Virus record (IMG/VR): IMGVR_UViG_2711768000_000004
Source: a virus
Lineage: Duplodnaviria > Heunggongvirae > Uroviricota > Caudoviricetes
Strand: one strand, 5' to 3'
Length of the DNA: 10,290 nt
The translations under genes were made by a program, and so were the position numbers. The notes beneath the pieces are model-generated. The model worked only from the letters and a program-made list of their open reading frames with translations. It did no database searches and was not told the DNA's origin. Shown one piece after another: positions 5,158-8,474 of this stretch; within the stretch, counting starts at the first letter, position 1; each line of letters opens with the position of its first letter.

Positions 5158-5677
5158 TAGACTGGCCCCCTGAATCTCCAGACAACCAGTATCACTTAAA
5201 TAAGTGATAGTCTTAATACTAGTTTTTAGACTAGTCATTGGAGTACAGATGATTGATGTCTTAGGGCCGGAGAAACGCAGACGGCGTACCACACAGGAAA
5301 AGATCGCAATTGTTCAGCAGAGCTTTGAACCGGGGATGACGGTCTCCCTCGTTGCCCGGCAACATGGTGTATACGGAGAAGCACATCCGTATCATCAGTG
5401 TGACGACTGCGGCGGCCATCCATCCAGTCATCGGTTCGTCTGAGAATGACGTGCAACTGCGCACGCGACACCCGGAGACAACGGCTGACTAAGCTTACTC
5501 CCCATCCCCGGGCAATAAGGGCGCGTGCGCTATCCACTTTTTTGCCCGTCCATATTCAACGGCTTCTTTGAGGAGTTCATTTTCCATCGTTTTCTTGCCG
5601 AGCAGGCGCTGGAGTTCTTTAATCTGCTTCATGGCGGCAGCAAGTTCAGAGGCAGGAACAACCTGTTCTCCGGCGGC
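5158..5677 (+). mobile_element. IS2 (IS3 family) fragment with aberrant structure
   Basis: 5158 onward matches the IS2 left inverted repeat (TAGACTGGCCCCCTGAATCTCCAGACAACCA...) and the orfA start (ATG 5249, [41 protein letters not shown]). After about 5371 the sequence becomes the reverse complement of internal IS2: the minus strand encodes the InsC C-terminus and InsD N-terminus ([59 protein letters not shown]). The fragment ends at the N run. Confidence 0.8.
5249..5371 (+). pseudogene. IS2 orfA (InsC) N-terminal fragment, 41 codons, then sequence diverges
   Basis: In-frame match to the IS2 InsC N-terminus. Reading frame leaves IS2 orfA after ...ARQHGV at the junction near 5361-5371. Confidence 0.7.
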
Positions 5678-5712
5678 NNNNNNNNNNNNNNNNNNNNNNN
5701 NNNNNNNNNNNN
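5678..5712. other. Unresolved sequence (35 N)
   Basis: Run of n characters; assembly gap or masking. Confidence 1.
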
Positions 5713-5839: not shown

Positions 5840-6278
5840 CTACGGTCCTCCTCCCCGGAGGGGGGCATTTCATTATTTTTCTAATCGTTACTGGTGAGAA
5901 GGCGGAAGAAAAAGCCAGTTCTTCGCCCCTAAATAACAGCATGATTCCAGTCCATGCAAAATCTGATTTCCAGCTCACACATACCGAGCACTGTACAAAA
6001 AACCGCCAGCCAAGGCAGTTAAGAGTGTGTTCCCGGGGTTTGCTTAGAATATTTTGTAAGTTGTCCGAAGAGATATTTACAACACCAGAATGATGAATCA
6101 TCAGTCCCCTGCCAGAGGTTCACTACGTAACCTGACCGACAATGCACCATTCTGGTGCTGAAAAAAGAGCACTGGAACTGCAACAAAACAACATCACAGA
6201 ACAGGAGATGGTAAGGAGTCAGACATTCCCACACAATATTGTGTCAGTGCAAATAACAACCTTCGTCTCAAATCTCGC

Positions 6279-6353
<75 letters not shown>

Positions 6354-6356
6354 ATA

Positions 6357-6432
<76 letters not shown>

Positions 6433-6434
6433 GC

Positions 6435-6511
6435 TGGCCCACCACCGAGGACTCGAACCTCGCACCGTCAACTTAGAAGGTTGATGCTCTATCCGGATGA
6501 GCTAGTGGTGG
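6435..6511 (-). tRNA. tRNA-Arg (anticodon UCU), argN-like
   Basis: CCACCACTAGCTCATCCGGATAGAGCATCAACCTTCTAAGTTGACGGTGCGAGGTTCGAGTCCTCGGTGGTGGGCCA. Acceptor stem CCACCAC/GTGGTGG, anticodon stem TCAAC/GTTGA with loop CTTCTAA, T arm CGAGG-TTCGAGT-CCTCG, encoded CCA. Confidence 0.85.
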
Positions 6512-6512
6512 T

Positions 6513-6589
6513 TGGTGGCCCTTGCTGGACTTGAACCAGCGACCTGGCGATTATGAGTCGCTCGCTCTGACCAACTGAGCTAAAGGGCC
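6513..6589 (-). tRNA. tRNA with CAU anticodon (Ile2/lysidine type, ileX/ileZ-like; Met not excluded)
   Basis: GGCCCTTTAGCTCAGTTGGTCAGAGCGAGCGACTCATAATCGCCAGGTCGCTGGTTCAAGTCCAGCAAGGGCCACCA. Anticodon loop CTCATAA. Very similar to my recollection of E. coli ileX. Encoded CCA; a 27-43 A-C mispair in the anticodon stem. Confidence 0.8.
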
Positions 6590-6600
6590 GGAGGCAGAAT

Positions 6601-6629
6601 AATAACCATATGTCATCACATCTGCAAAC
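6601..6629 (-). promoter_or_regulatory. Candidate sigma70 promoter for the tRNA cluster
   Basis: Minus strand TTGCAG (6629-6624), 17 bp, TATTAT (6606-6601). The first tRNA 5' end (6589) lies about 12 nt downstream of the -10. Confidence 0.4.
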
Positions 6630-6677
6630 TCATCTGACCACCAGCACGTTTAACGTCCTGTGCCGTTTTTCAGGTAT

Positions 6678-6703
6678 AAAAAAACCCGCTCATCGGCGGG
6701 TTT
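6678..6703 (-). terminator. Rho-independent terminator (minus strand) upstream of the tRNA cluster
   Basis: Minus strand AAACCCGC-cgatga-GCGGGTTT followed by TTTTTTTA. Stem is 5-8 bp, loop 6 nt, T tract at 6684-6678. Confidence 0.55.
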
Positions 6704-6773: not shown

Positions 6774-6934
6774 NNNNNNNNNNNNNNNNNNNNNNNNNNN
6801 NNNNNNNNNNNNNNNNNNNNNNNNNNNNNNNNNNNNNNNNNNNNNNNNNNNNNNNNNNNNNNNNNNNNNNNNNNNNNNNNNNNNNNNNNNNNNNNNNNNN
6901 NNNNNNNNNNNNNNNNNNNNNNNNNNNNNNNNNN
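6774..6934. other. Unresolved sequence (161 N)
   Basis: Run of n characters inside or just downstream of the ORF6N-domain gene. Confidence 1.
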
Positions 6935-7252
6935 CCACGCCTGATCGGTTTCGAGCATTTTGGCGTGACGGGCTGCGCCACGTTCTGTCCAGAGGATGAG
7001 GGAGCGAACGTTACGGGCAATTTTCACAGAAACTCTTAAAGAGTTTTCGTTCTTCAACTCTCGTAACGCATCACCTTCTATCAGGAAAAAATGTTTACCT
7101 TCTATAAACCGTTCTTTGTTTCGATTGAAATTGTTTGTCAAACGCTGGCGCTCTGTTCCGTACAAATCAGCCAGCAGCTCTGTTGTCATGACAGGAAGAT
7201 GGTTATGCGTAAGTGACGGGAGTTTTTCAATAGACGTGCGATTCATAGACAT
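6935..7252 (-). CDS. ORF6N-domain protein (KilA-N/ORF6N-type phage DNA-binding, antirepressor-like), 3' end lost in N gap
   Basis: ATG at 7252-7250 with AAAGGA upstream. The 105 aa before the gap (MSMNRTSIEKLPSLTHNHLPVMTTELLADLYGTERQRLTNNFNRNKERFIEGKHFFLIEGDALRELK...RSLILWTERGAARHAKML) resemble the ORF6N domain pattern as I recall it. Confidence 0.55.
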
Positions 7253-7389
7253 GTCCTTTCGAATATTTTGATTTACCCCTTTTGAGAGGGTGACCGGGCG
7301 CTCAAAACCGTCGAAAGTCGGCGGGCGTATTTCCATTGCTGGTATTGTATTAGCCGCACACCCGGTCATAAACCAAGAATTCTGGACAC

Positions 7390-7417
7390 AAAAAAACCAC
7401 ATGGCTATCGGGTGTGG
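7390..7417 (-). terminator. Terminator/attenuator-like hairpin in the leader of the ORF6N gene
   Basis: Minus strand CCACA-cccgatagcca-TGTGG followed by TTTTTTT (7396-7390). Lies about 30 nt downstream of the second promoter. Confidence 0.45.
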
Positions 7418-7452
7418 ATACCGCTTTCGAGGTGTTTTGAGCACCGCGGGGA

Positions 7453-7481
7453 AATGTAAACTGCAAACCTGAAACTGTCAA
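7453..7481 (-). promoter_or_regulatory. Near-consensus sigma70 promoter (second module)
   Basis: Minus strand TTGACA (7481-7476), 17 bp, TACATT (7458-7453). Confidence 0.5.
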
Positions 7482-7607
7482 CACCGTCAGGTTCCAATCA
7501 TCGGGTGGTGAGACGCACAGGGTTGGAACTACCGGGAAACCGACCGGCGAGCTTTTCAGCTCCCCCATGCGCCCCACCATAATTCAGATGTGCGCGTGCA
7601 TACGACA

Positions 7608-7692: not shown

Positions 7693-7722
7693 AATATAGC
7701 CCCGGACAATGTGTCTGGTCAA
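7693..7722 (-). promoter_or_regulatory. Candidate late promoter PR' with adjoining Q-utilisation region
   Basis: Minus strand TTGACC (7722-7717) begins 5 nt after the Q stop codon; -10 TATATT (7698-7693) at an 18-bp spacing. Initial transcribed region forms the hairpin CGCCAG-caaaat-CTGGCG. Position matches PR' in lambdoid phages. Confidence 0.55.
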
Positions 7723-7726
7723 GCAC

Positions 7727-8113
7727 CTACATAATTCGTTCTACGTATCTGTCCATCTCCAGCCGGATATCAAGCATCATCAACATGCCATCAATAACCC
7801 CTTCCGCTTTCTGCAGGCGCTTGCCAATACAGGTATCCGAACACCCATGTTTCCGTGCCAGACTCATAAAAGTCATTCCACCTACGTAATAATCCACCAG
7901 CAAATCGTGCAAATCCTGATTTTTCTTGTTCAACCGGGCCATACAGCCACAAATTATCATTGCATCATCATCAGAACACTGAGGGCGTGATTTCACTTTC
8001 GACGGAATTAACCCTTTAAAACCAGCAGCGATCGACGCCCAGGATACATCTTCATGAGTGTTTGCAGCCCAAGCCCCCCACCGTTCCATAACCTGCTGAA
8101 TATCACGCGCCAT
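7727..8113 (-). CDS. Q: Late-gene antiterminator Q (QuuD / DLP12-type)
   Basis: [61 protein letters not shown]... closely matches E. coli QuuD as I recall it. ATG at 8113-8111 with AGGTGA upstream; overlaps the rusA 3' end. Confidence 0.9.
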
Positions 8114-8474
8114 CGTTATCACCTGTGATTTCATAAATCTTCACGCCCAGTCGCCCACCAGGAACGAGCTGACCGCGCACAATATTGATTTCATCAAACT
8201 GCTCGTCGTCTATGAGTAGTCCGGCATGCGTCAGCGCATCCAGTGGTGCTTTCAGGATATTGTCCAGGTCACGACGGCGCTTATCCGGTGGCTCTGCAAT
8301 AATCTTTATCGCCAGCCTTCCGGACAGGTTTAATTTCAGCCGCTGCTGGCGAACAATTAGCGTCACATCACGGCGATAACGCTCACCAACTTTTGATACA
8401 AAATATGTGCTGCCACGACGTCGCCAGTAAGTATTCACCGTCGGCGGATAAGGTAAAATAAACTCATGGCGCAT
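8103..8474 (-). CDS. rusA: Holliday-junction resolvase RusA
   Basis: 123 aa, [21 protein letters not shown]...[24 protein letters not shown], typical RusA. Start ATG (8474-8472) overlaps the upstream gene stop (ATGA). Confidence 0.95.

Follow-up and report, generated by a model that had tools for sequence, protein, structure and literature searches.

The ORF6N gene downstream of Q

The DNA analysed here (the window) is the complete 10,290-nucleotide (nt) IMG/VR virus record IMGVR_UViG_2711768000_000004 (Duplodnaviria; Heunggongvirae; Uroviricota; Caudoviricetes). It is a lambdoid prophage whose genes are read on the minus strand, and it is almost identical to a prophage in Shigella sonnei. 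The gene of interest encodes an ORF6N-domain protein and is the first sizeable protein gene downstream of the Q antiterminator gene, from which it is separated by a 480-nt non-coding stretch. Translated from 7252 to 6935, it provides 106 sense codons and stays open right up to a run of Ns. Between Q and the gene, four Rfam elements are full-length, above the gathering score and on the strand of the gene. The gene is likely to be the 5' two-thirds of a 187-amino-acid (aa) ORF6N antirepressor-type gene, the counterpart of Gifsy-1 AnrP and of the N-terminal module of AntB of Shiga toxin (Stx) phages, placed behind two serial RNA gates. The features of the locus are collected in Table 1.

The start codon is probably the second ATG, at 7246, because the Shine-Dalgarno (SD) sequence AAGGA (7258–7254) lies 7 nt upstream of it and only 1 nt from the ATG at 7252, because E. 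coli EC12 is without the first ATG, and because the annotation of the 99%-identical S. sonnei protein begins at MNRTS. A start further upstream, in frame at 7336 and annotated in some Salmonella proteins (an extension beginning MEIRPPTFDGFERPV), was rejected. In EC12 this stretch is interrupted by an in-frame TAG, and it coincides with the small RNA (sRNA) sRNA-Xcc1.

Table 1 Features of the ORF6N locus and of its surroundings in the window.
Feature	Position	Strand	Basis or remark
Visible 5' part of the ORF6N antirepressor-type gene	6935..7246	minus	104 codons from ATG 7246; 106 from ATG 7252
Scaffold gap, exactly 161 N	6774..6934		true content by homology 257 nt: last 81 codons (EVFEKLEDCYF...LVERLMRF), TAA, 8 nt
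Intrinsic terminator closing the cassette	6682..6703	minus	in the ~100-nt 3' untranslated region (UTR), where Gifsy-1 has isrJ
isrK promoter, TTGACC-18-TATATT	7693..7722	minus	promoter scan 10/12; starts 5 nt past the Q stop
c4-a1b1	7699–7647	minus	Rfam RF03163, 50.1 bits (gathering 46.7)
IsrK sRNA	7686–7610	minus	Rfam RF01394, 77.5 bits (gathering 50); overlapped by c4-a1b1
b1 loop UUGGAAC (IsrK)	7661–7655	minus
Intrinsic terminator of IsrK	7631–7615	minus
C4-like antisense RNA (STnc1160 equivalent)	7501..7584	minus	Rfam RF01695, 71 bits (gathering 45)
Leader ORF, orf45 equivalent, 76 codons	7350..7580	minus	open reading frame (ORF) list; ends inside Xcc1
b' GUUCCAA within C4	7529–7523	minus	complementary to b1 UUGGAAC
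b2-like second UUGGAAC copy	7491..7497	minus	4 nt past the C4 end
Second promoter P2, TTGACA-17-TACATT	7453..7481	minus	promoter scan 10/12
Predicted short decoy sRNA, ~57 nt, IsrK-like	7390..7446	minus	sequence analysis
Decoy b1 hairpin GGUG-CUCAAAA-CACC	b1 7441–7435	minus
Decoy a1 UCGAAAG	7430–7424	minus	second copy of the loop target
Decoy terminator CCACA...UGUGG	7417–7397	minus	followed by U7, 7396–7390
sRNA-Xcc1	7284..7367	minus	Rfam RF02221, 77.4 bits (gathering 53), full length
Xcc1 hairpin-2 loop a' CUUUCGA	7317–7311	minus
Xcc1 J region b' UUUUGAG	7307–7301	minus
b2 (A)UCAAAA	7272–7266	minus	complements the J region UUUUGAG
a2 UCGAAAG	7262–7256	minus	overlaps SD AAGGA (7258–7254); exact complement of the a' loop
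Q antiterminator gene, upstream neighbour	7727..8134	minus	Pfam PF06530, E 2.7e-52; PHROG 79
RusA	8474–8103	minus
DnaB-like helicase	10260–8728	minus	followed by a small ORF
Transfer RNA (tRNA) cluster, anticodons CAT, TCT, TGT, TCC	6279..6589	minus	between cassette and lysis genes
Second N run, 35 N	5678–5712		between tRNAs and lysis genes

Content of the assembly gap

The C-terminus of the protein is masked by the 161-N gap, as an earlier sequence-only reading of the window had stated. Three relatives supply the missing sequence. Contig L004 (GCA_001256535.1), found via the neighbouring Q protein, shares 1562 nt with the window at 100% identity and runs 140 nt past the gap edge, in frame. 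The best of 3604 homologues (P0001) is a 187-aa "ORF6N domain-containing protein [Shigella sonnei]" with 99% identity. On its contig (L005), the 2954 nt upstream of the gap match the window at 99.97% identity and the 161 nt downstream of it at 100%. This contig bridges the gap with 257 nt, comprising 81 codons, TAA and 8 nt. The equivalent of the gap in EC12 is also exactly 257 nt. The C-terminal stretch expected by homology is EVFEKLEDCYFNQKQPPAAQNTSIENDGCALLSHFDKHGQVEFTEKVPADAMVCTLERFKFYLEQHGWIVARKEQLVERLMRF and then a stop, and the full protein, read in this way, is 187 aa. The N count is an underestimate of the kind typical of scaffolders. An immediate stop in the gap, which the same reading had named as a finding that would speak against it, is not what the relatives predict; by homology the frame stays open for 81 more codons. 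Since the 257-nt equivalent is wholly used by the 81 codons, the stop and 8 nt, the gap leaves no room for a second gene, and cargo within it, as had been suspected, is not supported. The sequence from 6773 downward is non-coding 3' UTR and aligns with the post-TAA sequence of EC12.

The gap lies exactly inside the gene, its stated length of 161 compares with 257 in the relatives, and its surroundings include another N run and an ORF with weak similarity to transposases. The gap might thus mark an insertion of an IS element, a rearrangement or a collapse, leaving a pseudogene in a decaying prophage. Such damage is highly improbable, because the identical L004 contig stays in frame beyond the gap edge, both flanks match L005 with nothing rearranged, and a repeat is the simpler cause of the gap. 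The break was probably caused by a C-terminal tail common to co-resident prophages, because two ORF6N paralogues, P0062 and P0098 (the latter with an S. sonnei source name), differ from the window protein in the N-terminal half but possess a C-terminal module almost identical to its own. A separate anomaly was seen in the assembly that matches the window. Its sister contig L003 (GCA_001256535.1 contig CXEP01000389) has, at 2569–2906, a 257-N run just past the isrK terminator and then RusA-like sequence, a join that looks like mis-scaffolding of two prophages.

Protein family and domain structure

The visible 106 residues match Pfam ORF6N (PF10543) over residues 15–99 with an E value of 2.2e-21 and 76.4 bits against a cutoff of 27.8. 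ORF6N was the sole Pfam family at E ≤ 1; Bro-N (PF02498) and KilA-N (PF04383) gave no match. The sequence-only reading had proposed the ORF6N type and a comparison with these three profiles, and the assignment is borne out. The PHROG comparison was made with the 99%-identical proxy P0001, the last 35 residues of the window protein itself being inferred. P0001 matches PHROG 2379, a 187-aa family annotated "anti-repressor", end to end (residues 2–187 against 3–187 of 187, E 6.8e-85). By this measure the gene is unexceptional and falls within the ORF6N antirepressor family as already catalogued. The P22AR C-terminal domain (PF10548) is present in Nil2 antB and was not found in P0001, which has ORF6N only. 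A sequence search of the PDB returned nothing at E ≤ 1.

The Gifsy-1 protein STM2616 (187 aa) is 50% identical to the full-length protein, with 184 of 187 residues aligned (E 4e-58). STM2616 sits between Q and tRNA, with Rfam c4-a1b1/isrK and C4 elements upstream and isrJ downstream (100 bits). It is identified as AnrP because the start of isrK and the end of isrJ lie 911 nt apart, in agreement with the ~910-nt operon RNA reported by Hershko-Shalev et al. 2016 (PMC4825925).

An AlphaFold model built from 60 homologues (predicted local distance difference test score, pLDDT, 75) comprises an N-terminal α/β domain, a long junction helix spanning the invariant LILWTERGAARHAKMLETDQAWEVFEKLEDCYF, a disordered linker (residues 114–129) and a C-terminal module of a small β-hairpin and two helices, the same module as in Gifsy-1 AnrP. 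The ORF6N domain occupies approximately residues 10–98 and is winged-helix-like. The linker and the small, variable C-terminal module lie wholly inside the assembly gap, which would therefore encode this AnrP-type module in place of the hidden effector domain that had been expected there. Homologues retain the N domain and the junction and exchange the C-terminal module. At least four types of module occur, including the P22AR C-terminal domain in Stx-phage AntB, a pattern that fits an exchangeable tail as specificity determinant. Several ORF6N proteins (P0062, P0098, P0013, P0019 and P0033) are mosaics recombined at the invariant junction, such that one C-terminal module is found with differing N halves and one N half with at least four tails.

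The ORF6N model resembles DNA-binding winged-helix domains, and the protein could accordingly act at phage promoters as a sequence-specific transcription factor, either an activator or a repressor competitor, instead of binding the repressor. The study of AnrP invokes "activated transcription activity" and no protein–protein interaction (PMC4825925), and 'Anti-repressor' in PHROGs and RefSeq is annotation only. Nonetheless, this alternative is unlikely. In close relatives this ORF6N module is followed, within one polypeptide, by the P22AR C-terminal domain, named after the phage P22 antirepressor, and the genes behind C4 and Xcc1 gates are the classical ant class. The induction outcome would be equal under either mechanism.

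Two RNA units in the leader

The isrK promoter that opens the first unit is conserved with Gifsy-1, Nil2 and EC12. IsrK and the C4-like RNA follow, with b' in C4 facing the b1 loop of IsrK and a b2-like copy of b1 beyond the C4 element. In an alignment of the window, EC12, Nil2 and Gifsy-1, these three sites covary: b1/b'/b2 read GGAAC/GUUCC/GGAAC in the window and EC12, and GGCGU/ACGCC/GGCGU in Nil2 and Gifsy-1. The covariation suggests distinct b specificities, as in P1/P7 immI heteroimmunity. An a–a' pairing of IsrK loop 1 (GCAAAAUC) with C4 loop 2 (UCGGUUUC) was also considered and rejected. The loops are not complementary, and only the b-type pairing is clear.

The leader ORF gave no family match in protein family searches. 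Counted from the isrK start, its two AUGs (7580 and 7568) fall at +107 and +119, the positions also listed for Gifsy-1 (PMC4825925, Table 1), and the b2 position lies downstream of both. In EC12 this ORF is 44 aa long and ends ~200 nt before the gene start.

The second unit begins with promoter P2. The Nil2 record labels its homologous site 'promoter sequence by homology', and at most other Xcc1 loci a promoter of the TTGAC type can be seen ahead of the a1/b1 unit. The predicted decoy RNA behind P2 contains its own b1 hairpin, a1 site and terminator and matches no Rfam family at E ≤ 1. Counterparts of it can be recognised at most Xcc1 loci. The full-length sRNA-Xcc1 element follows. Its hairpin-2 loop and J region are complementary to the adjoining a2 and b2 sites at the SD sequence of the ORF6N gene, and the decoy carries second copies of both sites. 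The predicted duplex with the a'–b' region of Xcc1 is stronger for the decoy (−32.2 kcal/mol) than for the SD site (−14.2 kcal/mol).

Two further candidate sites were discarded. A LexA box (CTG-N10-CAG) at 7490–7475, overlapping P2, is not conserved in EC12, which has ATG...CAG. A 9-nt perfect complement (GUCGAAAGU) of the Xcc1 hairpin-2 loop inside Q, at 8003–7995, is absent at that position in EC12 and is probably due to chance.

Stacked units are also found elsewhere. An IMG/VR viral contig (L153, 2422–3753) carries isrK, C4, Xcc1 and an ORF6N gene and then another isrK–C4 pair; the arrangement is therefore not unique to this prophage.

Loop-to-SD complementarity across Xcc1 loci

The complementarity between the Xcc1 loop and the SD region is maintained where the sequences differ. 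In EC12 the loop CUACUGA is matched by the SD-proximal site UCAGUAG, and in Nil2 the loop CUACUUG by CAAGUAG. Column-based covariation counts were rejected, because MAFFT shifts the loop and stem registers by 1–2 nt, and register-free tests of cognate against non-cognate pairs were used. In a set of 13 genomic loci, each with its own loop sequence, the longest perfect complement between loop and SD region has a mean of 7.15 nt in cognate pairs versus 3.85 nt in non-cognate pairs, and the observed mean was reached in 0 of 100000 permutations. Counting from Xcc1, 12 of the 13 loci have the complement at +22 to +26 downstream, and 12 of 13 have the upstream (decoy) copy at −59 to −90. A cognate upstream copy was present in 14 of the 17 Xcc1 units examined.

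An independent viral sample was obtained by scanning contigs with the hairpin-1 RNA core only, thereby avoiding selection through ORF6N. Most of the loci sampled from it (18/20) are Rfam sRNA-Xcc1 above the gathering score. Over 80 viral elements with distinct loops, the complement averages 6.6 nt in cognate and 4.4 nt in non-cognate pairs. It reaches at least 7 nt in 51 of 80 cognate pairs, compared with 3% of non-cognate ones, and the observed mean was reached in 0 of 20000 permutations. The targets end 6–11 nt before an ATG in 49 of 64 cases. An antirepressor-class gene lies downstream of Xcc1 in 55 of 61 viral cases, the downstream ORFs being distributed by N-terminal domain among Bro-N (14), KilA-N (14), P22AR-N (10), AntA (7), Rha (5) and ORF6N (5). 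Altogether the Xcc1 pairings covary over ~90 distinct elements (loci L001, L002, L006, L011–L063 and L089–L208). Viewed from the gene side, among 40 ORF6N loci of other species 24 are immediately preceded by Xcc1 or by C4, the latter alone or together with isrK, and the RNA elements of the window also stand ahead of ORF6N/ant genes in EC12, RMDEC465, Nil2 and phage 2851.

The balance of these comparisons favours, somewhat, the view that sRNA-Xcc1 is the C4-equivalent of a second widespread immI-like switch family. In such a switch the loop and J region would pair with two sites covering the SD of the gene that follows, a member of the antirepressor class (ORF6N, Bro-N, KilA-N, P22AR-N, AntA or Rha), and a short, promoter-proximal decoy of higher affinity, ending in a terminator, would compete for the pairing. 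In the window this switch would be stacked behind isrK/C4, providing two locks of differing specificity.

The promoter region and the possible role of Q

The sequence-only reading had described the gene as the first one after a Q-dependent promoter. Its position, between Q and the tRNA and lysis genes, is as described, but what follows Q is not a plain PR' promoter and tR' terminator: an isrK/C4 antisense-RNA module comes first and an sRNA-Xcc1 module second. The isrK promoter may be a component of the RNA cassette and independent of Q, because the promoter–RNA cassette precedes ORF6N/ant genes beside an unrelated Q (Gifsy-1, PF06323), beside ninE (Nil2) and after a non-Q gene (RMDEC465). The isrK promoter may nevertheless have a dual role as PR', since no other promoter between Q and the gene fits that role, the spacer between its −35 and −10 elements varies between loci, and the cassette terminator occupies the tR' place of RMDEC465, the sequence beyond it and into the tRNAs being identical. 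In a comparison of 6590–6703 with 6230–6330 of the RMDEC465 locus (L002), the segment from the U-run to the first tRNA shows no difference from the sequence that follows the terminator behind the Q-like DUF1133 gene of RMDEC465; the terminator stems differ, placing a mosaic joint at the tR' position.

The location invites the suggestion, made in the sequence-only reading, that the gene is a moron or cargo gene carried on the late transcript controlled by Q, and that the gap conceals an effector domain of unknown kind or another cargo gene. Related phages hold stx and other morons between Q and the tRNA and lysis genes, the gene has its own promoter-like sites and a terminator, and it is absent at that position in some relatives. 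Still, the probability of this origin is very small indeed. The gap-equivalent sequence is fully taken by the rest of the gene, the match to the antirepressor PHROG extends from end to end, and half of the residues are identical to those of the protein identified as AnrP. Moreover, the upstream RNAs are the immI/IsrK regulatory set that accompanies ant genes wherever these are placed. The promoter and terminator go with a gene of the regulatory antirepressor class, whose function concerns the phage's own lysis–lysogeny switch and not host fitness.

Proposed regulation of the antirepressor-type gene

The logic of the first unit has been demonstrated for Gifsy-1 and is conserved in the window down to both AUG positions. 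The Gifsy-1 isrK promoter drives orf45-anrP via read-through of the IsrK terminator, and the resulting long RNA is translationally silent until short IsrK binds in trans. Translation of anrP requires translation of orf45, and anrP expression increases antQ-operon mRNA and induces Gifsy-1 (PMC4825925).

By analogy with AnrP, the window protein, when made, would counteract the prophage repressor; the early/Q operon would then be turned on and the prophage would tip to lytic growth. Synthesis of the protein would be held off by two RNA gates in series. In the first unit, the isrK promoter would give rise to short IsrK (a1b1) and, by read-through, to a long RNA with the C4-like RNA and the leader ORF. 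In the second unit, P2 would produce the short a1/b1 decoy RNA and, by read-through, sRNA-Xcc1. The Xcc1 hairpin-2 loop and J region would pair with b2/a2 over the SD and block translation, whereas a surplus of decoy RNA would sequester Xcc1 and so free the ribosome-binding site.

Several observations weigh against the reading of the gene as an antirepressor behind two gates. The cognate repressor would be encoded outside the window. AnrP is only 50% identical to the window protein, and its effect was put down to transcriptional activation (PMC4825925). The last 35 residues come from the 99.97%-identical relative and not from this genome. With respect to the first gate, the leader ORF stops at 7350, 100 nt before the ATG at 7246, and does not overlap the gene start; translational coupling of the Gifsy-1 type therefore does not apply, and unit 1 may act only through read-through. 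The argument for the Xcc1 gate consists of complementarity and covariation, and which of its states would be ON is argued from P1 c4 and IsrK. RNAalifold applied to a MAFFT alignment of the decoy sRNA equivalents found no consensus fold, probably owing to the visible register shifts. The C4 covariance model gave no match at E ≤ 1 on the Xcc1 element, and therefore analogy with C4, not homology, is claimed.

By homology, the gap holds nothing exotic, and the gene would be a standard prophage-induction regulator. Antirepressors constitute an SOS-independent induction route for prophages of Shigella, E. coli and Salmonella. The leader is the notable part of the locus. It supplies a mechanism that can be tested for sRNA-Xcc1, the role of which has been an open question since 2010–2011, and ties this RNA family to the whole domain-shuffled antirepressor class. 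It also suggests that immI-like antisense "immunity" modules comprise at least two structural families, which can be stacked. If the proposed regulation is correct, loop and target sequences alone could allow prophage annotation to predict antirepressor cross-regulation between co-resident prophages.

Neighbouring genes

The remaining genes of the window are those of a lambdoid prophage (Table 1). Lysozyme, Rz, HNH, TerS, TerL and portal genes follow the tRNA cluster; no holin was identified in the window. The cluster recurs in E. coli RMDEC465, where its first three members carry the annotations Ile, Arg and Thr in that order, and on the basis of that annotation the CAT tRNA is probably tRNA-Ile2. 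A 100-aa ORF at 5235–5537 has a weak transposase-like PHROG match (E 8e-6).

Comparison with known systems

The sRNA-Xcc1 element was described in Xanthomonas campestris (RF02221), and the window element is a full-length match to its covariance model. The searchable papers describe it as a trans-acting, HrpG/HrpX-controlled and virulence-linked RNA located upstream of symE in integrons of Xanthomonas campestris. One paper places it upstream of an ORF6N gene in APSE phages and gives no explanation. In contrast, here and at ~100 other loci it forms a 5' leader with a loop that matches the SD region of the next gene. Occlusion of a ribosome-binding site by sRNA-Xcc1 is proposed nowhere in the searchable literature, and the complementarity of its loop to the SD region and to a decoy copy appears to be new.

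The immI regions of P1 and P7 (c4 – icd – ant) share with the window an RNA of the C4 family flanked by a1/b1 (upstream) and b2-type (downstream) target copies, a small leader ORF ahead of the antirepressor gene, and heteroimmune-style covariation of the pairing sites. They differ in that the leader ORF of the window starts within the C4 element and not after it, and in that a–a' pairing is not evident in unit 1 of the window by simple complementarity.

Gifsy-1 has the same order of elements: Q, isrK promoter, IsrK (a1b1), C4-like RNA, a 187-aa ORF6N protein, terminator, tRNA and lysis genes. However, the Q proteins are unrelated (PF06530 in the window, PF06323 in Gifsy-1), and the b1/b'/b2 specificity is GGAAC in the window and GGCGU in Gifsy-1. 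The stop of the Gifsy-1 leader ORF overlaps the anrP start, whereas the leader ORF of the window does not abut the gene. An extra unit of ~200 nt, consisting of promoter, decoy, terminator and Xcc1, is interposed in the window, and isrJ (RF01393) has no match at E ≤ 1 in its segment 5500–8200. In both Gifsy-1 and Nil2 the ant gene begins ~50 nt after b2, whereas in the window and EC12 this segment is replaced by the second promoter.

The Stx phages Nil2 (AJ413274) and 2851 (FM180578) contain both units, as isrK-C4-antA followed by promoter-Xcc1-antB, and the window leader together with the N-terminal 106 aa aligns with them at 76–79% nucleotide identity. Their modules are located in the nin region and that of the window after Q. 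Their antB product has the P22AR C-terminal domain PF10548, whereas the window protein has the AnrP-type C-terminal module. The window has no antA, and its unit 1 is joined straight to the promoter of unit 2, so that, as judged by alignment, it looks like the Nil2/2851 arrangement minus antA.

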